Of a stretch of DNA of 64,000 nt, positions 29,113 through 44,991 are shown piece after piece; the stretch's first letter is position 1; each line of letters opens with the position of its first letter. The DNA lies in the NCBI GenBank assembly GCA_964371245.1, contig CAYJKP010000001.1:187042-251041 (forward strand), written 5' to 3'. Below the pieces are notes generated by a model, which did no database searches, was not told where the DNA came from, and saw only the letters and a list, made by a program, of their open reading frames with translations. The translations under genes and the position numbers were made by a program. This DNA comes from an uncultured Gammaproteobacteria bacterium. GTDB lineage: Bacteria > Patescibacteriota > Patescibacteriia > JAHIZJ01.

Positions 29113-31005
<1,893 letters not shown>

Positions 31006-31020
31006 TTTAATTCCCATAAT

Positions 31021-31046
31021 GTAGGCGACCTTTAAAGGTCGCCTAC
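31021..31046. terminator. Perfect 10-bp palindrome gtaggcgacc-TTTAAA-ggtcgcctac after dnaK
   Basis: Perfect inverted repeat 15 nt after the dnaK stop, with no U-tract. Core aggcga.cc/gg.tcgcct is shared with 22259-22290. Confidence 0.45.
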
Positions 31047-31067
31047 GAGAGTGATTATCATCTTGTC

Positions 31068-31088
31068 ACCCTGAACTTGTTTCAGGGT
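31068..31088 (+). repeat. Hairpin motif accctgaacttgtttcaggg(t); an identical 20-nt copy is at 8717-8736
   Basis: Exact 20-nt identity between the two loci. 7-8 bp stem with a cttgt loop. Confidence 0.7.
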
Positions 31089-31195
31089 CTCCATAACCAC
31101 AAACGTAGTAATGAGATGCCGAAACGAGTTCGGCATGACAGTATCGTGATATTGATTCACGCGGTAAATACGAATGGTTAATTAACGAAATTATT

Positions 31196-31510
31196 ATGCC
31201 CAACCAACCCCAACCCAACCAACAGCCAAACTCCCGCCAGATCCAGATCAAGGTCACGGATGACGTGATGCGCGGTGTGTACGCGAACGCGATGTCCGTG
31301 GTACACTCAAAGGAGGAATTCACGCTCGACTTCATGAACATCTACCCGCACCAGGGCGCCGGGATCGTGACCGGCCGGATGATTATTTCACCGGGACACA
31401 TGAAGCGCATCCAGGCCGCGCTCCAGGACAATATCAAGAAATACGAGAACCAATTCGGCAAGATCGAGGAAGCCCAGGCGCCCGAACCGATGGGTTTCAA
31501 GACCGCCTAA
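31196..31510 (+). CDS. Hypothetical small protein within the heat-shock cluster
   Basis: 104 aa with a Pro/Gln/Asn-rich N-terminus. No motif. Confidence 0.45.
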   Translation: MPNQPQPNQQPNSRQIQIKVTDDVMRGVYANAMSVVHSKEEFTLDFMNIYPHQGAGIVTGRMIISPGHMKRIQAALQDNIKKYENQFGKIEEAQAPEPMGFKTA

Positions 31511-31537
31511 ACGGGTAAATAACAAAAAAGTAAATCC

Positions 31538-32686
31538 ATGCGCACCCAAGAAATTGCGAAGTTGTCAGGCTTGAGCGCGGCGTCATTTATCGCGGCGCTG
31601 ATTGCCGGATTTCTGCTTGATAGCGTTTTTTCGAAACTCAACCTGACGCTGGCCGTCCCGTCAATCACGATAATTGTCAATTTTCTTCTGGCGCTTTTGT
31701 TCTACTTTTGGGCGATCGCGCTTTTCGGCATCCTGTCAGCATTGGAAAGTCAGCGATACTTTCTGCTCGGTCTATCATTCGGGTTGCCAGTGACGATTTT
31801 TATCGCCTTGGGCGTGAATCTATACACGGCCATCGGCGCGGGCCTGTTGTTTCTCGGTCTGATCCAATACGGTTTGAAGGTGCGGCAGGAACGTCAGGAG
31901 CGGCTGAAGGTCGGGATCAATAAATTTATTCGGCACGGCCTCGGGGCTTGTATTAGCACGCTGTTGCTGGCTATTTCTCTAAGCTTCTATGGCGCGATTG
32001 CCACCCAGGGATCCGAGCAGCTCGATCCGGTGGTTGTCACCTCGCGCATGGCGGCGAACGGACTGAACCAGTACTTGACGATGAAGCTGAAGGGGTATGA
32101 TCCGGACATGACCGTCGACGAGTTCGTTTTTCTCATTGTTACCCAAGATATCCAGCCGGCCAAGGAAGTAAGCGCCCAAACGGTCCCGGGTTTGCCGGCC
32201 GCTGACAAGGGCGATACGTTTTTCGGGATCGACATCAACGAGCTGACCAAGGACCTGCAAAATATCCCGATCGATGAAATAAAGCAAAAACTGCCGGCCG
32301 ATTATCTTGAGCGGATCCAGCAGGACCCAGCCTATGTCCAACAAATCTTTCAGACGTTCCAGAGCGATGTGATCGGCCAGCAAATCGCCATCTCAAGGGA
32401 TAATTTATTGAAGACGCTCCACGTCCAGGCCGAGGGAACGGATCCGATCGGCACGGTTTTGGAAAAGGTAATCGCGGTCCAGTTAAATGATTTGTTCCGG
32501 CCGTTCAAGTACTTGCTCCCGCCGATTTTGGCTCTGACCCTGTATTTCGCCTTGCAGATATTCGGCTTCATCTACAGCTGGATTGTCCATCTCTTCGCCA
32601 TGGTGGCGTATTATATTCTAAAATGGCTGAACTTCTTCCAGATCAAACGGGAAAAGAAAGACGCGGAAGTGATCAGTTTAAGCTAG
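31538..32686 (+). CDS. Hypothetical membrane protein within the heat-shock cluster
   Basis: 382 aa. About 5 N-terminal TMs, a central soluble region and 2 C-terminal TMs. Confidence 0.5.
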   Translation: MRTQEIAKLSGLSAASFIAALIAGFLLDSVFSKLNLTLAVPSITIIVNFLLALLFYFWAIALFGILSALESQRYFLLGLSFGLPVTIFIALGVNLYTAIGAGLLFLGLIQYGLKVRQERQERLKVGINKFIRHGLGACISTLLLAISLSFYGAIATQGSEQLDPVVVTSRMAANGLNQYLTMKLKGYDPDMTVDEFVFLIVTQDIQPAKEVSAQTVPGLPAADKGDTFFGIDINELTKDLQNIPIDEIKQKLPADYLERIQQDPAYVQQIFQTFQSDVIGQQIAISRDNLLKTLHVQAEGTDPIGTVLEKVIAVQLNDLFRPFKYLLPPILALTLYFALQIFGFIYSWIVHLFAMVAYYILKWLNFFQIKREKKDAEVISLS

Positions 32687-32689
32687 CCT

Positions 32690-33784
32690 ATGTCAAAAGA
32701 TTATTATGAAATATTAGGCGTTTCGCGCGACGCTTCAGCGGCTGAAATAAAAGCCGCCTACCACAAACTAGCCCACCAGCACCATCCGGACAAAGCCGGT
32801 GGGGATGAAGCGAAATTCAAGGAAATCAACGAGGCGTACCAAGTACTCTCAAATTCCGAGAAGCGCCAGCGCTACGATCAATTCGGCCAGTCATTCGACG
32901 GGTCGCAAGGTTTTAATTGGCAGGATTTCGCCCAGGGCCAGAACGGTTCCGGCGGGTACCGGACAAACGTAAATTTTGAAGACCTGGGCTTCGGCGATTT
33001 GGGAGATATTTTCGGCAGCTTTTTCGGCGGCGGCGGCTCGCGCCGGACGCGGACGAAACGCGGCAATGATCTCGAAGTCAGCGTGACGCTGGATTTTAAG
33101 GAAGCTGTTTTCGGCACGACGCAGACATTGCGGCTCTATAAAACCGTGATCTGCGATCACTGTTCCGGTAACGGCGCTGAACCGGGCACAAAGATCGAAA
33201 CCTGCCCGACCTGCCATGGCGCCGGACAGGTCCAGCAGATACAGTCGACCGTGTTCGGACAATTCCGCACAGCGACGGTCTGCCCGGATTGCCGGGGCGA
33301 GGGCAAGCGCGCCAGCCAGAAGTGCAAGAAATGCCACGGCAGCGGAACCATGAAAGACCATGAATCGCTCGAGGTAAAGATACCGGCTGGAATCGCCGAT
33401 GGTCAGTCAATCCGCTTGTCCGGCCGTGGCGAAGCCGGCGCCCACGGCGGTGGGCTCGGCGATCTCTACATCCGGGTACGAGTCAGGGAGGACAAAGATT
33501 TTGCCCGCCAGGGCGATGACATACTCTCGACGCTCGAGATACCCTACACGATCGCTGCGCTGGGCGGCAAGGTCGACTTGCCGACAGTAGACGGCGAGGT
33601 CAGATTAACCATACCGTCCGGCACGCCGTCGGGTAAAGTGTTCCGCGTGCGCGATCACGGGGTTCATCGGCTCCACGGCCGCGGCCGGGGCGATCACCTC
33701 GTCACGGTCCACGTCCGGGTGCCAAAACACCTCTCGTCGCGGGCGAAGCAAATTCTCGAAGACCTGTCAGCGGAAGGGGAATAA
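32690..33784 (+). CDS. dnaJ: Chaperone DnaJ
   Basis: J-domain (YYEILGVSRDAS...HPDK), G/F region, four CxxCxGxG zinc-finger repeats. Confidence 0.9.
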   Translation: MSKDYYEILGVSRDASAAEIKAAYHKLAHQHHPDKAGGDEAKFKEINEAYQVLSNSEKRQRYDQFGQSFDGSQGFNWQDFAQGQNGSGGYRTNVNFEDLGFGDLGDIFGSFFGGGGSRRTRTKRGNDLEVSVTLDFKEAVFGTTQTLRLYKTVICDHCSGNGAEPGTKIETCPTCHGAGQVQQIQSTVFGQFRTATVCPDCRGEGKRASQKCKKCHGSGTMKDHESLEVKIPAGIADGQSIRLSGRGEAGAHGGGLGDLYIRVRVREDKDFARQGDDILSTLEIPYTIAALGGKVDLPTVDGEVRLTIPSGTPSGKVFRVRDHGVHRLHGRGRGDHLVTVHVRVPKHLSSRAKQILEDLSAEGE

Positions 33785-33846
33785 GGATTGTTGGCTTGGG
33801 TCGGCGGTGGTATACTGACAGCAAGCAGACAATTCAATAACAAACA

Positions 33847-34899
33847 ATGAAGACAATTTTTAGGACGTTGGCTTTTGCGCTCGTCATCATCATCGGCGCT
33901 TTTTTTGTTTTCGCGTATGCCCGCCGGGCTGATATTGCCGAGGTACAGGACAGCGATTTACGAAAAGATCAGCCAGTCGTGGCCGAGGCTGATAATGCCT
34001 ATCCACTCGTCGTAAAAATTCAGCCAGATATCACGATTTCACAGGATGATTTTAACTGGATCGAGTCAGTGTTAGCAGGCAAGGACTGGGACGAGAAACG
34101 GGTAAACGACATAATAATGTCTCAAGCTGTTGCGTTAAATGCCTTTGATAGCATCTCACAAAAAAGGGCATACCAATACAGCCAAGCCGATCTGGAAAAT
34201 GGCGGAGGCCTGCTCGGTCCCAGCCGCCGGATAGCCGATCTGGCGTTATTACGCGGCCTGCAACTCGAGAAAGAAGGCAAATTTAACGAAGCGTTCCAGC
34301 TCTCGGAGAAAGCATTGGCTTTCAGCCAGGCCGTCGTCGGTTCGAGCAATTCCCTGATTCAGTACATGGTTGGAGCGGTCATGAAAAAAACTGCCTTATC
34401 CAGGCTGCAAGTGCTGATAAACACAAACCAGTTATCCTACGAATTTTTAAATCAAGAAGCGGCGACGATCAGCAATTATCGTGACGACCTTCCCGGCCTA
34501 CAGGTGGGTTTGAGAGGCGAATATAGCCTTAGTGCCAGCTGGGCTGAGAGCGATCCAAACTTTGCCCGAGACGCGGGAATATTTCCAAAAATGTTTTATA
34601 CCCGAAGCTACTATTGGAAGCCAAAAATGACCTTGCAGCAAAAGGCGGAGCAAATGCGGATCATTATAAAAAACGTCGGTACTGCTTGCGGTAACAACCA
34701 TCGTGAATTTATCGTGCAGCCAGGCTTGTTTCCGGTTTCAAAGCTGTCGTACCCGTTTACTGAAAATCTCATTGGCCGGAAGCACGTCGATCTGATGGTC
34801 GACTCAATCAATCAAACCAGCCTGTATGACCGGCGCTGCGAAAACGAAGCGGCTTTTGACAATCTCCAGGCCATAATGATTCGACGGGCCGGTTCCTAG
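33847..34899 (+). CDS. Hypothetical protein with N-terminal membrane anchor
   Basis: 350 aa. One N-terminal TM, then a soluble domain. No motif. Confidence 0.45.
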   Translation: MKTIFRTLAFALVIIIGAFFVFAYARRADIAEVQDSDLRKDQPVVAEADNAYPLVVKIQPDITISQDDFNWIESVLAGKDWDEKRVNDIIMSQAVALNAFDSISQKRAYQYSQADLENGGGLLGPSRRIADLALLRGLQLEKEGKFNEAFQLSEKALAFSQAVVGSSNSLIQYMVGAVMKKTALSRLQVLINTNQLSYEFLNQEAATISNYRDDLPGLQVGLRGEYSLSASWAESDPNFARDAGIFPKMFYTRSYYWKPKMTLQQKAEQMRIIIKNVGTACGNNHREFIVQPGLFPVSKLSYPFTENLIGRKHVDLMVDSINQTSLYDRRCENEAAFDNLQAIMIRRAGS

Positions 34900-36433: not shown

Positions 36434-36997
36434 ATGATTTTTGCAGCCGCGGCCCAAGTTAACTCCTCATTTATCGCGAATATCGACTGGTCGAAACCAA
36501 GTTGGGATTTGTTCATCATACTGTTTTTTGTGGTCGCGGTGTTTCTGTACGGTTTATCGCTCGGCCGCGATCGCATCGTGGTCATCCTGGTCAGCATTTA
36601 CATGGCCTTGGCCGTGGTTACGACCGCGCCGTACATCGGTAATTTCTCAACTGAGGTAGGGGTCAATCAATTCTTCGTGGTCCGCATTTCGATGTTTCTA
36701 GGCGTCTTTATCCTGCTGTTCCTGCTTTTATCCCGTTCGGCGCTGCTTCAAACCATCGCGGCAGCCGATAAAAAGGGCGGCTTTTTCCAGATTATGGTTT
36801 TCAGTATTCTCCATGTCGGTTTGCTGATCAGCATCACTCTGTCGTTTCTTCCGCCCGATTCAATCAACGGCTTATCGCCGCTGACGCGGACGATTTTTGC
36901 CAGCGAGGTCGGCCGGTTCATTTGGATCGTGGCACCGATCGTGCTGATGATCCTGCTGAAGAGCGAGAAGGACAAGAAGTTCAAATACGACATCTAA
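36434..36997 (+). CDS. Hypothetical polytopic membrane protein
   Basis: 187 aa with 5 predicted TMs. Confidence 0.5.
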   Translation: MIFAAAAQVNSSFIANIDWSKPSWDLFIILFFVVAVFLYGLSLGRDRIVVILVSIYMALAVVTTAPYIGNFSTEVGVNQFFVVRISMFLGVFILLFLLLSRSALLQTIAAADKKGGFFQIMVFSILHVGLLISITLSFLPPDSINGLSPLTRTIFASEVGRFIWIVAPIVLMILLKSEKDKKFKYDI

Positions 36998-38507: not shown

Positions 38508-38535
38508 AATAAAAAAAGCCCCCTCGGCGAGGCGG
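38508..38535 (-). terminator. Intrinsic terminator of the AAA+/CorA operon (minus strand)
   Basis: Minus strand reads gccgcctcgccgagggggc followed by T7 (plus strand aaaaaaagccccctcggcgaggcggc). Confidence 0.5.
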
Positions 38536-38567: not shown

Positions 38568-39557
38568 TTACTCCTTTTCGGCGTGTTGTTCAGCTTCTTC
38601 TTTCAGATCCTCTTCGACTGCCTCAGCGTTTTGCTTCCACTCGTCAACCACCTGTTTAACGTCGTTTTTAGTCAGCTGCGGATAAATGCCCTGCTGGTAT
38701 TTTGCCGGATTGCTTAAGGCGTCGAGCCGGACTTTCGCGGCCGCTTCGTCGATGATATCGATTGCCTTATCCGGAAAGGCCCGTTTGACCAGGACGTTTT
38801 GACCGAGCGCGACGGCTTCAGTAATCGATTCATCGGTGATGCCAACCTGGTGATGTTGCTCATAGCGCTGCCGTATCCCTTTCAGGATCTCAATCGTCTG
38901 TTCTGGCGTTGATTCCTCGACGTGGACAGGCTGGAACCGCCGTTCGAGCGTTTGGTCGTGTTCCAGGTATTTACTGTAGTCCTGACTGGTCGTGGCACCG
39001 ACCACCTGAAGATCACCCCGGGCCAGGGCCGGTTTTAGGATATCGGCGGCGTTGATCGCGCCCGTGGCCTCGCCGGCTTCTGCCAGCGTATGAAGCTCGT
39101 CGATGAACAGAATAATATTGCGCCGGCTGGCGATAATCTCATCAAGAATGCCCTTCAACCGTTTTTCAAACTCGCCCCGGTATTTCGTACCGGCGACCAG
39201 GCCTGACAAATCGAGCTGTAATACACGCTTATTCTTCAGTGGTTCAGGCACGTTACCAGAGGCGATTTCGTTTGCCAGTTCTTCGACGATCGCGGTTTTA
39301 CCAACGCCGGAATCGCCGATTAGGACCGGATTATTTTTCGTCCGACGGGACAATATTTGGATCACCCGTTCGATCTGATGTTTTCGGCCGATCACGGGAT
39401 CGAGCTTGTCTTGAAGGGCGAGCTGGGTCAGGTCGCGGGCATAAAGATTGAGTAGGGGCGTTTTCCCACCGCTAATGTTGCGGCCCTTGCCCTGAGCAAA
39501 CCACAAAGCCAAACCAGTAATGATGCCGAAGCCAACGATGTAGGGGATGAAGTCCAT
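38568..39557 (-). CDS. Membrane-anchored stand-alone AAA+ module homologous to ClpB/ClpC nucleotide-binding domain 1
   Basis: 329 aa. N-terminal TM ([14 protein letters not shown]). D1 signature [39 protein letters not shown], Walker B FIDELH, sensor region. No N-domain, M-domain or D2. Confidence 0.7.
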
Positions 39558-39560
39558 AGT

Positions 39561-40526
39561 TTATTCGAGCATTCTTTTCTTTTTCATGTACCAATACATG
39601 CCGAGCGCCGAGCTGAAACACAGCACCAGCGGCAGCCAGAAATTGAAGGTGGCGCCCAGGATCGGAAAGTAACCTTTCATCAAACCGAAAATGGAGGCGG
39701 AAACGTAGATCGGAAGCACGAGGGCGGAAATCACGGTCAGCGTCTTCATAATATCATTTATCCGGAATGAGATTAAGGACTCATTCGTCTGCTGGAGGGC
39801 CTCGATCGCTTCTTTGAAGCCTTGAAGGGTGTCCCAGATGTCTTTCGTGTCGTCGATGAGTTGTTCAAAATACGTTCGGAGGCCATTGATGCGAAAGACG
39901 CTTGGCTCGCGGCTATCGATCATTTTCTTCAGTACGTTCTTATGCGACTGCATGATCTTCCGGAAGTTGGTAATGTTTCGGCGAATGACCAAAATCTCGC
40001 GAACCATGCTTTTTTCATTGCCGGCGAAGATACGCGATTCAATATTTCCAATGTCGATATTCAAATGATCCAACATCGGATAACAGTAAAGGAGGAGAGA
40101 ATTGATTATCGTATAGGCCAGCTTCTCCATGCCGTCGTGCATATATTTATCGCGCGCATCATCATTGACCGAGCATAGGTCAAACATGTCGACGAGCGGG
40201 GGAAGGTTATTGTCGTGTACCGTAATGAAATAGTCGGGTCCGATAAAAAAATCCACCTCAGACGGCCTGATCTCCCGGGTTTTCCGGTCGAACACAGGGA
40301 AGAGGAGGATAAGGAAAATATAGTCGGTGTATTTGTCGACGTTTGGACGCTGGGCGGGCGATAAGCAATCTTCGAGATCGAGCGGGTGGAACTTGAAATT
40401 CTGGCGGAGATACTCGATCTCTTCATTCGTTGGTTTTACAATATTTATCCAACGAAGCCCATTACAGGTGAGGGTTTTGACGTTCATGTTGTGTTTTTGC
40501 TTTTGTTTTTGAATTTCACCGAACAT
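39561..40526 (-). CDS. CorA-family divalent cation channel homolog with GLM in place of the GMN motif
   Basis: 321 aa. CorA cytoplasmic-domain motifs (HPLDLEDCLSPAQRP, DFFIGPDYFITVH). Two C-terminal TMs with IFGLMKGYFPIL between them and a KKKRMLE tail. Confidence 0.7.
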   Translation of the reverse strand: MFGEIQKQKQKHNMNVKTLTCNGLRWINIVKPTNEEIEYLRQNFKFHPLDLEDCLSPAQRPNVDKYTDYIFLILLFPVFDRKTREIRPSEVDFFIGPDYFITVHDNNLPPLVDMFDLCSVNDDARDKYMHDGMEKLAYTIINSLLLYCYPMLDHLNIDIGNIESRIFAGNEKSMVREILVIRRNITNFRKIMQSHKNVLKKMIDSREPSVFRINGLRTYFEQLIDDTKDIWDTLQGFKEAIEALQQTNESLISFRINDIMKTLTVISALVLPIYVSASIFGLMKGYFPILGATFNFWLPLVLCFSSALGMYWYMKKKRMLE

Positions 40527-40639
40527 CTATATTGTAGCACATTTTGAGAAATATTGCAAGCTTTAAAAGGCAAAGTGAGGCGCCGGCGAAATGGGGTTCG
40601 TCGGCGCTCGTGTAGGGTGGGAAAAGGGCGGGGTTGGTG

Positions 40640-41188
40640 TCATGGCTCTGTCAGACCACAGTTCGTGGCCTGGAGCTTCACCGGGATCAGGAACCGTTGG
40701 ACGATCCGTTCCTCCGGCGGAGTCGGTCCGCTGGACGGCTGGTACGTGGCGACCAGCTCAATCTGCCGATAGCCATCATAGTGATTCGGCACGTCGAACC
40801 CGAAGCCTTGGCCGAACTTCCGATTGTTGATGCGCTTGACTTTCATCCAACGCTTCGGCTCGTCCGAGAAGCGCCACTCGATGGATTCCACCCGGTTGCC
40901 ATAGGTGTAGGCGGGGAGGAAGCCAAACGTCAAGTAGGCGGCGTTCGTGTTGACCTGTTCGGCCAACCAAGTAGTCTCGACGGCGGTTGAGTCGACCTCG
41001 AGTTTTATGCGGTAGAACCGCTTCAACTGGAGGTCGTTCATGACATAGAGCGCCGGATTCTCGCGGCACTCGGCGCCGATGTAGTTGACCGTCACGCTAC
41101 GCGGCGTCTTCACCACGTAACACGTGCAGCCATTCCCGACGGCGAGGACCGTCGCCAGCAGACAGAGAACGAGCAACGTCCGGTACAT
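40640..41188 (-). CDS. Hypothetical secreted Cys-containing protein (about 58% GC)
   Basis: 182 aa. N-terminal signal peptide (MYRTLLVLCLLATVLAVGNGC). GC3-rich codon usage. Confidence 0.45.
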   Translation of the reverse strand: MYRTLLVLCLLATVLAVGNGCTCYVVKTPRSVTVNYIGAECRENPALYVMNDLQLKRFYRIKLEVDSTAVETTWLAEQVNTNAAYLTFGFLPAYTYGNRVESIEWRFSDEPKRWMKVKRINNRKFGQGFGFDVPNHYDGYRQIELVATYQPSSGPTPPEERIVQRFLIPVKLQATNCGLTEP

Positions 41189-41345: not shown

Positions 41346-41876
41346 GTGATGCAATACGGAAATGCCCCAAAAAACGTCGATGTTGAACCGGTTCTCCCGG
41401 AAAAACAAGTTGATCAACCAGAACGCACTGGCGAACCGGGAAGTATTGAAATAAAACGCCCGGTTGAAAAAAAAGAGCAACCGGTTGAGGTGCGCATCGA
41501 ACGACCGAAGGAACTGCCAAAAACCGAAACCAGCGAACAGCCGCTCGCGTCAATGCCGCCGCCTGCCGGATCAGCGATTGCCACGCCCGCAAAATCAGAA
41601 ACCTATCGACAAATCGAGCAGATATTGGAAGATGACTTGTTCCAGGTGTATCAGGCCATGGACGAGCCAACTAAGCGCCGGTTTCAGGCCGAGGGTGAAA
41701 AAACCACCTCAAAAATTGAAGTCCTGCTCCAAGCCACCAAGATTCAAGTGAAAAAGATCCTCGATTTGATCAAGAACTGGTTGAAGATCATCCCGCGGAT
41801 CAACAAGCATTTTCTTACGCAAGAGGCAAAGATAAAAACCGACCGTATCATTGCCCTAAAAGATAATCAAAAATAA
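41346..41876 (+). CDS. Hypothetical charged/Pro-Glu-Lys-rich protein
   Basis: 176 aa with a low-complexity PEK-rich N-terminal half. No motif. Confidence 0.4.
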   Translation: MMQYGNAPKNVDVEPVLPEKQVDQPERTGEPGSIEIKRPVEKKEQPVEVRIERPKELPKTETSEQPLASMPPPAGSAIATPAKSETYRQIEQILEDDLFQVYQAMDEPTKRRFQAEGEKTTSKIEVLLQATKIQVKKILDLIKNWLKIIPRINKHFLTQEAKIKTDRIIALKDNQK

Positions 41877-41883
41877 ACCACCT

Positions 41884-44433
41884 ATGGTTTGGCTTTTGGC
41901 TGCGACAGTCAGTCTGCCCGAGGCAACAGCGGTGATCGAGAGTGAGACCGGCGGTAACTTACTGGTGACCGTGTTTGTGTTGCTAGGGATCGTGGCGCTT
42001 GTGATAGCGCTTTTTTCCATATTCCGCTGGGCCATGAATAATACCATGCTTATCCCGATGGCTTTCCGGCGAAAAGTCCTGATGATCTCAGTGCCGAAGG
42101 AGCACATGGAGCTCCAGGAGCAACAGGACAAGCACAAAGGGAACGTCAAAGAATTGATTGCCGTTGCTGAGGCGCTCTATGCGAATCTCGGCGGTATTGT
42201 CCGGATGCAAAAATGGTATTCGCGGCTGCTCTACGGCCGGCACGATCATCTCGCCCTGGAAATCGTGGCCGATAAGGGCTTTGTCTCATTTATTGTGGCG
42301 ATACCGTTTCAATATCATGAATTCATCGAGCAGCAGATTCACGCCCAATATCCGGAAGCCCACGTCGAAGCAATGGAGGATTATAATATATTTTCTTCGC
42401 ACGGCGTCATCAAGATGAACAATCTGAAATTGTCGCGCTCAAACATGTATCCGATTCGAACCTATCAGAAACTGGAAGTTGACCCAATGAACGCTATTAC
42501 GAACGTCTTGAGCAAGATCACGGAGCCGGAAGGGGCCGCCATCCAAATACTCTTTCGACGGGCCGGCCGGGGTTGGCAGCACGCCGCCCACTCATACGCG
42601 CGCAAGGTGATTCAGGGGAAGGGCGGTCAGGCCGGTTCAGGCGCCATGATGGGGGATCTGTGGCACTCGGCGTTTCCGAGTAAGATGCAGGATCAGAACG
42701 AACAGCAAAAAAAGAATTTTTACAAACTGTCGCCGATCGAAGAGGGTAAAATGAAGGCGGTCAGCGAAAAGGCAGAGAAAATCGGCTTTGAGGTTAATCT
42801 GCGGGTCATTGTTTCGGCGGGTGATGCCGATCGGGCCAAGATTTATATGGATAATATTTTAAATTCGTTTACGCAGTACACCGCCCATGAAACGGGTAAC
42901 AGTTTCCGAAAAGCCAAGGTCTATCTGAAACATCGGTTCATCCACGATTTCATCTTCCGGAATTTCCGCCGCCGGAACAGCTTCATCCTGAATACCGAGG
43001 AGCTAACCAGCCTATGGCACTTGCCGTTGTCTGACACGGAAACGCCGAATATCCGCTGGGCCGCGGCCAAACGCTCAGCCCCGCCCGTTGATTTGCCGAA
43101 CGAAGGGCTGATCCTCGGCCAGAGCAGCTACCGCGGCCGCGATCTACTCGTTCGGATAAAGAAAGACGATCGGCGACGCCATGTCTACATCATTGGTAAA
43201 TCCGGCGTCGGTAAATCAGTTTTGATGACGAACATGGCGGTTCAGGACATAAAAAACGGCGAGGGCGTTTGCGTTGTTGATCCGCACGGCGATTTGATTG
43301 AAGACATCCTCGGACAGATTCCAAAAGAACGCAGCGACGACGTCATTATTTTTGATCCGTCCGATACTGAACGGCCGGTTGGCTTGAACATGCTCGAAGC
43401 GCAGACGCCGATGGATCGGGATTTCGCCGTACAAGAAATGATCAGCATTTTCTACAAGCTTTTCCCGCCGGAAATGATCGGGCCGATGTTCGAGCATAAC
43501 ATGCGCAACGTCATGCTGACGCTGATGGCGGACACGGTCCAGCCCGGCACGATCGTTGAAATTCCGCGCATGTTCACCGATCCGGAATACCAGAAATTCA
43601 AACTTCGCAAGGTGACCGACCCGGTGGTGCGGAATTTCTGGGAAAAAGAGATGGCCAAGACGACCGATTTTCATAAGTCAGAGATGCTCGGCTATCTCAT
43701 TTCAAAAGTCGGCCGTTTCGTCGAGAACGAAATGATGCGGAATATTATCGGCCAATCGCGCTCCGGCTTCGATTTTGAAGAAATCATGAACAAGCGGAAA
43801 ATTTTGCTCGTCAATCTGTCGAAAGGCAAGACCGGCGAGGTCAACAGCTCGCTGCTCGGCTTGATCATCGTTTCAAAGCTCCAGATGGCGGCGTTGCATC
43901 GGGCGAATCTGCCGTCGGAGGAAAGACATGACTTCTATCTCTACATCGACGAATTTCAGAATTTTGTGACCGACAGTGTGGCCACCATCTTGTCTGAAGC
44001 CAGAAAGTATCGTTTGAATCTCATTATTGCACATCAATATATCAACCAGTTGGTTCAAAACAACGACACCAAGATACGCGACGCGGTCCTCGGCAACGCC
44101 GGGACGATTATCTCGTTCAAAGTCGGCGTCGAGGACTCTCAAATGGTGTCAAAAATATACGCGCCGGTCTTTAATGAGTTTGACGTGATGAATATCGAAA
44201 AATATAACGCCTACGTCAAGCTCTTGATCGACAATCAAACCGGTCGAGCCTTCAATATGCAGACGGTTGCGCCGCTGCCGGGCGACCGGGCGCTGGCGCA
44301 ACGGATCAAGGAGTTGTCGCGGCTGAAACACGGGCGCGAAAAGAAGGTTGTGGAGACGGAAATAATGGAACGGAGCCAGCTGGGCGCGCCGGCTGCCCGT
44401 CTTGGTGACACTGTTGGGGAACGGCACATGTAG
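41884..44433 (+). CDS. VirD4/TraG/TraD-like type IV coupling protein-family P-loop ATPase with N-terminal TMs
   Basis: 849 aa with 2 N-terminal TMs. Walker A IIGKSGVGKS, VVDPHGDL, Walker B-like LYIDEFQNF, and a C-terminal segment resembling the TraD/TraG relaxosome-binding region. Confidence 0.55.
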   Translation: MVWLLAATVSLPEATAVIESETGGNLLVTVFVLLGIVALVIALFSIFRWAMNNTMLIPMAFRRKVLMISVPKEHMELQEQQDKHKGNVKELIAVAEALYANLGGIVRMQKWYSRLLYGRHDHLALEIVADKGFVSFIVAIPFQYHEFIEQQIHAQYPEAHVEAMEDYNIFSSHGVIKMNNLKLSRSNMYPIRTYQKLEVDPMNAITNVLSKITEPEGAAIQILFRRAGRGWQHAAHSYARKVIQGKGGQAGSGAMMGDLWHSAFPSKMQDQNEQQKKNFYKLSPIEEGKMKAVSEKAEKIGFEVNLRVIVSAGDADRAKIYMDNILNSFTQYTAHETGNSFRKAKVYLKHRFIHDFIFRNFRRRNSFILNTEELTSLWHLPLSDTETPNIRWAAAKRSAPPVDLPNEGLILGQSSYRGRDLLVRIKKDDRRRHVYIIGKSGVGKSVLMTNMAVQDIKNGEGVCVVDPHGDLIEDILGQIPKERSDDVIIFDPSDTERPVGLNMLEAQTPMDRDFAVQEMISIFYKLFPPEMIGPMFEHNMRNVMLTLMADTVQPGTIVEIPRMFTDPEYQKFKLRKVTDPVVRNFWEKEMAKTTDFHKSEMLGYLISKVGRFVENEMMRNIIGQSRSGFDFEEIMNKRKILLVNLSKGKTGEVNSSLLGLIIVSKLQMAALHRANLPSEERHDFYLYIDEFQNFVTDSVATILSEARKYRLNLIIAHQYINQLVQNNDTKIRDAVLGNAGTIISFKVGVEDSQMVSKIYAPVFNEFDVMNIEKYNAYVKLLIDNQTGRAFNMQTVAPLPGDRALAQRIKELSRLKHGREKKVVETEIMERSQLGAPAARLGDTVGERHM

Positions 44434-44460
44434 TCGAGCGGCGGTTTTTTCGCTATACTA

Positions 44461-44991
44461 ATGGGTGTTATGACGCCTTTTATTTTTTTATTGCTGATCG
44501 TCATTGTCGCCGGCACGGCCATGTGGGCGAGTTTTTCAGCGGCGCCGTGGCTGCCGACGCGGGCGAAGGATATCGATCGGTTGCTTGAGCTGGCTAAACT
44601 GTCACAGAAGAGCCTGGTGTATGATTTGGGCTGCGGCGACGGACGGCTGCTCATGCAAGCCGCACGAAAATATGGAGCGCACGGCGTCGGCTTTGAGGTA
44701 TCCGTCCTGCCATTTCTCTGGTCATGGGTCAGGGTAGCGTTGTCAAAAGAACGCGGGCGCATCACAATCAAGTATCGCAATTTCTACCAGGTTGACCTCG
44801 CGGCCGCTGACGCCGTCGTCTGTTTTTTGACGCCGCCGGCGATGGTGAAATTGGAACCAAAACTGCGGCAGGAATTACGGCCGGGCAGTCGCTTCGTCAC
44901 CTATTGTTTCAAATTACCAACCTGGCAACCAACCACGGTCAGCCGGCTGAACAAAAAAGACATGCCGATCTATGTCTATACGAAGAATTGA
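44461..44991 (+). CDS. Small class I SAM-dependent methyltransferase with N-terminal TM
   Basis: Motif I VYDLGCGDGRLL, 176 aa. Confidence 0.65.
   Translation: MGVMTPFIFLLLIVIVAGTAMWASFSAAPWLPTRAKDIDRLLELAKLSQKSLVYDLGCGDGRLLMQAARKYGAHGVGFEVSVLPFLWSWVRVALSKERGRITIKYRNFYQVDLAAADAVVCFLTPPAMVKLEPKLRQELRPGSRFVTYCFKLPTWQPTTVSRLNKKDMPIYVYTKN

Follow-up and report, generated by a model that had tools for sequence, protein, structure and literature searches.

Membrane-anchored, D1-only Clp/Hsp100 proteins of Patescibacteria and their CorA-family gene neighbours, most of which have lost the GMN signature

The DNA analysed here (the window) is a 64-kb stretch of contig CAYJKP010000001.1 from an uncultured bacterium of the candidate phyla radiation (CPR; Patescibacteria). 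We focus on two adjacent minus-strand genes within it, one for a CorA-family protein and one for an AAA+ protein of the Clp/Hsp100 type that consists of the first Clp ATPase module (D1) behind a predicted membrane anchor. The elements of this locus are:

40531..40559, minus strand: promoter-like TTGCAA-17 nt-TACAAT with an upstream TG, just 5′ of the CorA gene (consensus scan, pattern match only)
39561..40526, minus strand: open reading frame (ORF) from an alternative upstream CorA start, ATG 40526, which would give 321 amino acids (aa)
39561..40487, minus strand: CorA-family gene, 308 aa plus stop (full-model Pfam match, CorA fold in AlphaFold2 (AF2), homolog lengths)
38568..39557, minus strand: membrane-anchored D1-only Clp/Hsp100 AAA+ gene, 329 aa plus stop
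38518..38533, minus strand: terminator-like hairpin with T-run, located past the D1 stop codon and ahead of the cysS start (consensus scan, pattern match only)

Translation of the window agreed with a first-pass annotation, made from the sequence alone, which had placed both ORFs here with a 3-nucleotide (nt) gap: on the minus strand, CorA lies upstream and D1 downstream, joined as TAA-act-ATG, and the spacing stays at 0-4 nt across the window's clade. The operon that this annotation proposed is supported by the tight same-strand pair and by the promoter-like and terminator-like sites on either side, which in the consensus scan enclose exactly the CorA and D1 genes. Position 40526, given as the upstream end of the interval, holds for the ORF itself but not for the CorA start. 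Because nearly all CorA homologs are ~305-312 aa long, and because the −10 element of the promoter-like sequence ends at 40531, only 4 nt ahead of ATG 40526, the true start is most likely ATG 40487, giving a predicted protein of 308 aa. Transcription is predicted to begin ~35-40 nt upstream of ATG 40487, which is too near ATG 40526. Neither an M-box nor another riboswitch was found upstream of CorA, and Rfam reported only three tRNAs in the window. ORFs of related loci were called by a simple script, and their starts may be over-extended.

The AAA+ protein has the following parts:

39495..39548, minus strand: N-terminal signal-anchor transmembrane (TM) helix, residues 4-21 (AF2 helix, hydropathy)
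39459-39494, minus strand: basic flexible linker (~56 in the predicted local distance difference test, pLDDT)
39294..39317, minus strand: Walker A GDSGVGKT (family signature GxSGVGKT; GEPGVGKT in full-length ClpC)
39165..39194, minus strand: substrate-threading pore loop (invariant in 64 of 64 D1-only proteins; 21 full-length proteins differ only by T/S at one position)
39096..39113, minus strand: Walker B ILFIDE, its D and E invariant
38988-38999, minus strand: sensor-1 GATT, invariant or nearly so in 64 D1-only proteins
38928-38948, minus strand: Arg-finger segment LERRFQP, with R206 and R207 invariant
38571..38906, minus strand: D1 small (lid) domain, terminal helix and acidic tail (AAA_lid_9, AF2, family alignment)

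Pfam matched only AAA and AAA_lid_9 in this protein, without PF02861, and the ClpB model of NCBIfam was matched at positions 155-449 of 853. With 381 bits against a cut-off of 1232, ClpB was the best of the NCBIfam equivalogs, and the protein stayed below the cut-offs of all of them (ClpB, ClpA, ClpV, ClpG, ClpK). Among solved structures, the best sequence match was Bacillus subtilis ClpC residues 153-415 (1.6e-93). The AF2 model (pLDDT 91.7) consists of a hydrophobic helix at residues 4-21, a flexible basic linker at 22-33, the large and small domains of D1, and a terminal helix at 297-328; when it was submitted to Foldseek, the top matches were the D1 modules of ClpC, ClpC1 and ClpB, at a root-mean-square deviation (rmsd) of ~2 Å across ~273 columns. 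Identity to ClpC D1 is 53-64% across residues ~31-289, and the pore loop KYRGEFE, Walker A/B, sensor-1 and Arg fingers are the same, except that Walker A has Ser where ClpC has Pro. In contrast to ClpC and ClpB, the protein has an N-terminal TM anchor and no Clp_N domain, coiled-coil M-domain, D2 ring or ClpP-docking loop; among the hallmarks of class I Clp proteins (ClpA/B/C) it thus retains the D1 module. The anchor helix and basic linker imply an N-out/C-in topology, as predicted from the sequence.

The missing parts were searched for nearby. A tblastn search of the 64-kb window with full-length ClpC matched the D1 region alone, with no Clp_N, M-domain or D2 anywhere else, nor were these found within 6 kb on either side of 68 D1-only loci. 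In the family alignment, compared with full-length ClpC, the M-domain is cleanly excised at a VRL...P.VT..D...EW junction. The ClpP-docking (I/L)GF loop is normally located in D2; the sole [ILVM]G[FL] tripeptide of the window protein, VGF at residue 8, belongs to the TM helix. These results agree with the first-pass annotation, which had described Clp NBD1 alone with an N-terminal TM helix, had seen no IGF/LGF loop, and had asked for a Foldseek comparison.

The D1-only protein is no rarity of this locus and belongs to a populous Patescibacteria family. Among the best 120 database clusters, 119 were 299-367 aa long and 58-81% identical to the window protein; all named sources were Patescibacteria (Kerfeldbacteria, Nomurabacteria), in agreement with the CPR origin that the first-pass annotation had guessed, and the public labels at NCBI and JGI were generic ('AAA family ATPase', 'Clp protease ATP-binding subunit'). 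The identical protein is encoded on at least 20 contigs, one of 1.18 Mb, and complete CPR genomes with a gene of this family include CP060223.1 and CP181398.1. Members of the family, as we define it, are ~300-370 aa long, start with a single TM helix and a linker of the form 'KT..L..Y..DLT', have GxSGVGKT and an entire D1, carry 'EW..DL' near the C-terminus and lack D2; the window protein shows all of these features. A scan with one genome per species yielded 59 D1-only loci and 21 full-length ClpC-type loci, the latter from Atribacterota, Halanaerobiales and one CPR3 genome with ~62-65% identity over the D1 core. In a neighbour-joining (NJ) tree of the D1 core, as all our trees are, the D1-only proteins were monophyletic, included the window protein, and were separate from these full-length ClpC proteins.

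The two groups also differ at the N-terminus. By hydropathy and alignment, almost all D1-only proteins start with a hydrophobic helix that the full-length proteins lack: maximal Kyte-Doolittle hydropathy in the first 45 aa exceeded 1.5 at almost all D1-only loci versus ~0.3-0.7 in most full-length Clp proteins, and the few D1-only proteins without a hydrophobic N-terminus appear to come from ORF calls that extend too far or are cut off at an end. Among 64 D1-only proteins, the motifs of Walker A (GxSGVGKT), Walker B (FIDE), sensor-1 (GATT) and the Arg-finger (RRFQP), as well as the pore loop, were invariant or nearly so; the proteins end in a conserved 'P.VT..D...EW..DL' segment. Between the window species and a 96%-identical sister, the ratio of non-synonymous to synonymous substitutions (dN/dS) of the D1 gene was 0.049 at an unsaturated dS of 0.40, i.e. 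it is under strong purifying selection. Collectively, this points to a ClpC derivative that is maintained by selection, anchored in the membrane, reduced to one ring and apparently still able to act as a catalyst, in a family that appears confined to CPR and descended from a ClpC-type Hsp100. Literature searches returned no description of a D1-only or membrane-anchored Clp in CPR, nor of a CorA-Clp pairing, in line with the first-pass annotation, which was not aware of such an architecture. The known parts are the ClpC D1 and the CorA fold; the membrane-anchored D1-only family and its pairing with CorA would be new.

The relevant positions of the CorA-family protein are:

40368..40388, minus strand: HPLDLED motif of the cytoplasmic domain; its E-D aligns with E88-D89 of Thermotoga maritima CorA, part of the divalent-cation sensor site
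39678..39752, minus strand: TM1, the pore-lining helix ending in GLM (alignment, AF2 model)
39678..39686, minus strand: GLM tripeptide replacing the GMN selectivity filter (HMMER alignment; coordinates confirmed by translation)
39579..39650, minus strand: TM2 (AF2 model, sequence)
39564-39587, minus strand: basic C-terminal tail KKKRMLE, after TM2

Pfam PF01544 matched the protein over model positions 3-292 of 292 (7.3e-51), and T. maritima CorA matched it at 4.9e-26. The AF2 model (pLDDT 85.9) shows the CorA fold: an alpha/beta domain at the N-terminus is followed by a long helix that forms the stalk and TM1 and, after a short loop, by TM2; the two C-terminal helices, which provide the two TM segments expected of the family, span residues 204-270 and 280-303. 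Like T. maritima CorA, the protein has HPLDLED, the basic tail, and the equivalents of the gate residues N288, M291, L294 and P303. In contrast, the GxN signature of the CorA/2-TM-GxN (metal ion transporter, MIT) family is replaced by GLM: the HMMER alignment pairs T. maritima IYGMNFEYMPEL with IFGLMKGYFPIL of the window, so that G312-M313-N314 becomes G-L-M. The acidic external-loop residues E316 and E320 become G and I, and D253 is Gln. The score for the NCBIfam equivalog TIGR00383 corA was 162.4 bits, below the cut-off of 200.75.

The first-pass annotation had reported this GMN-to-GLM replacement along with retained cytoplasmic funnel motifs, two C-terminal TM helices and a basic tail, and all of these were recovered here. 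It had also argued that GLM speaks against ordinary Mg2+ selectivity, and since GxN is both the signature of the CorA family and its selectivity filter (PMC6972854), loss of the filter Asn argues against canonical Mg2+ selectivity of the predicted protein. A canonical hydrated-Mg2+ filter is thus absent, and the pentameric scaffold is probably intact. FGLMKGYF is conserved in the three closest CorA homolog clusters. Because sister species whose CorA is 66-69% identical still have FGMN (L007 is a GMN sister), GLM is a recent, lineage-specific change. The GLM gene has a dN/dS of 0.021 at an unsaturated dS of 0.51, and such strong purifying selection marks it as functional; we therefore read its product as a working protein, yet presumably no canonical Mg2+-selective channel.

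Loss of GMN is not limited to this lineage. Among the nearest 120 clusters of the CPR CorA subfamily, 80 had GMN and 40 did not, the Asn being gone in 22 of the 40. The Asp of HPLDLED was present in 76 of the 80 GMN members and in all 40 of the others, and positions equivalent to the T. maritima gate and pore-lining residues N288, M291, L294, P303 and Y311 were conserved in both groups alike.

In ten Kerfeldbacteria-like species the gene directly upstream of D1 encodes a shorter protein of 221-243 aa, which we call mini-CorA (L023 5254-5919, L028 5019-5720, L032 1885-2553, L035 5114-5800, L038 5044-5862, L041 5076-5765, L044 5140-5811, L048 4998-5726, L056 4997-5722 and L063 4997-5728; P0241-P0249). 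Mini-CorAs keep the N-terminal ~130 residues including HPLDLE, followed by a shortened helical part and one C-terminal TM helix, without a pore loop. HHalign gave a probability of 99.7% for homology of their first 129 residues with the CorA N-domain. The mini-CorAs change more quickly than D1 yet are intact, with proportions of non-synonymous differences (pN) of 0.29-0.45 versus ~0.72 for synonymous ones (pS). We conclude from these sequences that mini-CorAs are CorA derivatives that should be unable to form a CorA-type channel.

To the question raised by the first-pass annotation, whether the pair is syntenic in relatives, the D1-anchored survey gave a positive answer: a same-strand CorA-like gene lies upstream of D1 in 36 of 54 species-level genomes with enough flanking sequence. 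The upstream CorAs comprised 5 with GMN, 2 with GLM, 22 other non-GMN two-TM proteins and 10 one-TM mini-CorAs. The tripeptides of the other non-GMN proteins include AVR, AAR/TAR, xIG (GIG), xIK (SIK), GLD and STN. The pair is embedded in a housekeeping block with dnaK, dnaJ, cysS and dnaX, and CorA state tracks the D1 clades, from which we conclude that the pair is inherited vertically. The two genes thus appear to be co-transcribed and co-inherited. GMN, in a census registered on the FGLMKG motif, was kept by 7 of 34 CorAs with D1 downstream versus 41 of 48 without D1, in D1-anchored and CorA-anchored locus sets that were sampled differently (L010-L064 and L090-L169, respectively). Fisher's exact test of GMN state by D1 adjacency gave a nominal P-value of 3.5e-9; shared ancestry exaggerates this significance, and we do not rely on it. 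No CorA-D1 fusion was found at the level of 50% representatives, at which the family collapsed to a few (P0264, P0271, P0290), and Pfam scans of ten odd-length matches showed fragments or chimeras only.

In many clades, the CorA-like gene and D1 are separated by a small ORF for a single-pass membrane protein of 48-147 aa, which is also present directly upstream of D1 where CorA is absent; it is missing from the window's clade, where the gap is 0-4 nt. The ORF encodes a 'T..T..KI.vG' pattern ahead of a TM helix, and longer versions add a C-terminal domain (L020 5808-5954, L040 5846-5992, L017 5766-5957, L016 2182-2487, L045 5443-5886, L005 5689-5952, L024 2160-2600 and L039 5459-5977). It may be a third component of the module.

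A conserved gene trio adjoins the CorA/D1 slot in most related CPR genomes and is found in the window at 41346-44991 on the plus strand, divergent from the CorA operon. Its members are a 176-aa protein without a Pfam match (p176), an 849-aa membrane protein with DUF8128 and a TrwB/VirD4-type coupling-protein ATPase, which matched mad8 in PADLOC (8.9e-16), and a small methyltransferase-like protein. Elsewhere, the trio occurs at the majority of D1 loci, L005 7432-10292 and L007 1141-4212 among them; one Nomurabacteria genome has the p176 and DUF8128 genes after D1 on the same strand.

Our tentative preference is for a membrane-facing, ClpP-independent unfoldase accompanied by a repurposed, non-essential accessory derived from CorA. 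A ClpC-type ancestor would have exchanged its N-domain for a signal-anchor TM helix and lost the M-domain and the whole D2 ring, leaving a threading motor with one ring, anchored on the cytoplasmic side of the membrane. That the motor would be active is suggested by the invariant ATPase residues and Tyr pore loop, and its independence from ClpP by the absence of D2 and hence of a ClpP-docking loop. In ClpB and ClpC, the D1 N-terminus lies on the substrate-entry face of the ring, and with a linker of only ~12 residues the TM helix would consequently turn the pore entrance towards the membrane, an orientation shared with the AAA rings of FtsH and Msp1/ATAD1. Placed in this way, the protein, presumably a hexamer, would extract or unfold membrane or membrane-proximal proteins.

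The CorA-derived partner, a two-TM and presumably pentameric protein that keeps the cytoplasmic funnel, sensor Asp and hydrophobic gate and lacks the Asn ring and the acidic loop residues, could interact with the D1 motor as a cation-sensing regulator or adaptor, or could be its client. Repurposing is suggested because D1-linked CorAs lose the filter or the pore and are nevertheless retained, and because the genes are only 0-4 nt apart in the window's clade. A more far-reaching version is unlikely in our judgement: that CPR possess a new Hsp100 class, a single-ring membrane-anchored ClpC-D1 'extractase' with a dedicated non-conducting, cation-sensing CorA-derived partner, which together would form a Mg2+-responsive membrane proteostasis module, the partner ranging from GMN-less two-TM proteins such as the GLM protein to the one-TM mini-CorAs.

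The comparison with Msp1/ATAD1 and the FtsH AAA module is one of working principle only. In each, a short linker joins a TM anchor at the N-terminus to one AAA module with an aromatic pore loop, and Msp1 extracts membrane proteins from bilayers (PMC12793716). However, the window ATPase is a ClpC D1 by sequence and no Msp1 ortholog, and unlike FtsH it has no protease domain.

Several points weigh against an unfoldase with a CorA-derived accessory. In about one third of species the D1-only gene has no accompanying CorA, which holds for whole clades (Buchananbacteria-like species, and Nomurabacteria with a complete genome among them), and most CPR CorAs of this subfamily, in the CorA-anchored set of metagenome contigs, have cysS directly downstream and no D1. 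Unrelated neighbours are at least as syntenic with D1 as CorA is with its 36 of 54: cysS in 32 of 40 loci, p176 in 30 of 40 and the DUF8128/TrwB-like ATPase in 31 of 40. CorA and D1 thus share one slot of an old CPR gene block in which either or both may be present, and their adjacency may reflect only a frozen gene order in streamlined genomes. The D1-linked CorAs cluster as essentially one clade of the CorA tree, with maybe as few as ~3 independent GMN losses, and phylogeny thus confounds the association of GMN loss with D1. The promoter and terminator assignments are consensus matches only, and a functional link between CorA and D1 is deduced from gene order and sequence. Moreover, some Hsp100 D1 rings are poor at forming hexamers when D2 is missing, and a coaxial CorA-D1 complex is unlikely given the pentamer/hexamer mismatch and the ~10-nm CorA funnel. 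These points do not support the functional coupling that the first-pass annotation had envisaged in suggesting a membrane-protein quality-control or ion-gated module.

The occurrence of each gene without the other and the equally syntenic neighbours would also be expected if CorA and D1 were mere neighbours in an ancient, frozen CPR order (TrwB-like ATPase/p176 <> CorA - D1 - cysS), co-transcribed for economy, the main rival explanation, which we regard as possible, albeit with some doubt. D1 would then be a general membrane-proximal chaperone or unfoldase, and the GLM CorA a cation channel or efflux protein of changed selectivity whose filter would have drifted because the clade would have another Mg2+ importer. 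The retained gate and pore-lining residues of non-GMN CorAs fit this explanation, as does the strong purifying selection on the GLM gene, which would suit a working transporter; the correlation of GMN loss with D1 would be a lineage effect. It accounts less well for the 0-4 nt gap and for a putative promoter and terminator that enclose only the two genes, for pore-less mini-CorAs kept intact directly upstream of D1 in ten species, and for a filter tripeptide that keeps diversifying (AVR, AAR, GIG, SIK, GLD) while the rest is conserved, which is odd for a mere change of ion. We consider it improbable that D1 is half of a split two-ring Clp whose D2-type or ClpP-docking partner (or FtsH) is encoded elsewhere, with CorA irrelevant. 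In class I Clp proteins, both ClpP docking and the stability of the hexamer normally depend on D2, and the inspected sequence is 64 kb of a ~1.18-Mb genome; however, neither the window nor the 6 kb around 68 D1-only loci has a D2-like ORF, the M-domain and D2 are deleted at a clean, conserved boundary followed by the family-specific 'EW..DL' motif, and the TM anchor at the N-terminus was gained rather than left over.

Decay or artefact, i.e. a truncated clpB/clpC pseudogene, an assembly fragment or a dying GLM CorA, is refuted. Pseudogenes classically show the loss of domains or of a 'universally conserved' motif, and a clpB fragment was one of the outcomes that the first-pass annotation had named as fatal to its proposal. 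The AAA+ gene is instead complete and selected: an identical protein is found on the 20 or more contigs mentioned above, length is conserved at 300-370 aa across > 100 clusters, the catalytic motifs are invariant, dN/dS is low for both D1 and CorA, both AF2 models are confident, and no other Clp part lies nearby. An anti-phage defence module, in which an AAA+ sensor or motor would be coupled to a CorA-type membrane effector, is essentially excluded. The analogy is to type III CRISPR systems, whose CorA effectors bind S-adenosylmethionine-AMP (SAM-AMP), act as membrane-disrupting agents in defence, and keep the CorA TM region behind a novel N-terminal domain (PMC10600005); they are thus a precedent for a CorA-family protein with another job than Mg2+ uptake. 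Here, in contrast, the canonical CorA N-domain is the best conserved part and the pore loop/TM region degenerates. Furthermore, PADLOC gave no match for CorA or mini-CorA and only weak, generic P-loop matches for D1; there are no cas or mobile-element genes nearby and no CRISPR context; and the pair is inherited vertically inside a housekeeping block rather than in a patchy, island-like distribution.

Hsp100/Clp proteins are textbook soluble machines with two rings or, in the ClpX type, one. If a conserved D1-only ring is indeed bolted to the membrane, it would represent a new architectural class of AAA+ unfoldase. Genome-reduced CPR bacteria have minimal proteostasis networks, and the family, if our reading of it is true, hints at how they manage the quality control of membrane proteins. 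The CorA proteins amount to a natural experiment, in which channels whose family is defined by GxN have given up the filter time and again, and in one clade even the entire pore, while still under purifying selection; this would imply a second, non-conducting function of the CorA cytoplasmic domain. Both proteins are small, well predicted and amenable to heterologous expression, though the hosts are uncultured. A lineage-restricted, atypical Clp/Hsp100 class recognized from sequence surveys has a parallel in ClpI, a class of Clp unfoldases that was identified bioinformatically in Actinomycetota (PMC10149685); that class belongs to another lineage, and the title and abstract of the report imply neither a membrane anchor nor a D1-only architecture.

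Further genes of the window and its relatives were noted in passing. A 182-aa ORF at 40640-41188 (minus strand), directly upstream of the CorA promoter region, starts with a lipoprotein-like signal sequence, LLATVLAVGNGC; it matched nothing in Pfam or PADLOC, and its conservation is limited to close relatives of the window (L007, L010, L012, L014). The chaperone region at 29113-34899 (plus strand) contains dnaK (29113-31005) and dnaJ (32690-33784). Between them is a 382-aa ORF without a Pfam match (31538-32686), which is syntenic with dnaJ in many relatives and whose homolog stands beside a DUF3467 gene in L007 and L008; a 350-aa ORF, likewise without a Pfam match, follows dnaJ at 33847-34899. 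Many metagenome-assembled genome (MAG) records with the CPR syntenic block are titled 'uncultured Gammaproteobacteria bacterium' (TPA_asm; L011, L022, L026, L028, L031 and others) and one is titled 'Pirellulales bacterium' (L033); these titles are probably placeholder or mis-binned taxonomy labels. Finally, a 187-aa multi-pass membrane protein without a Pfam match is encoded at 36434-36997 (plus strand), and 33 of 40 D1 loci have a conserved copy of its gene downstream of cysS and near dnaJ.

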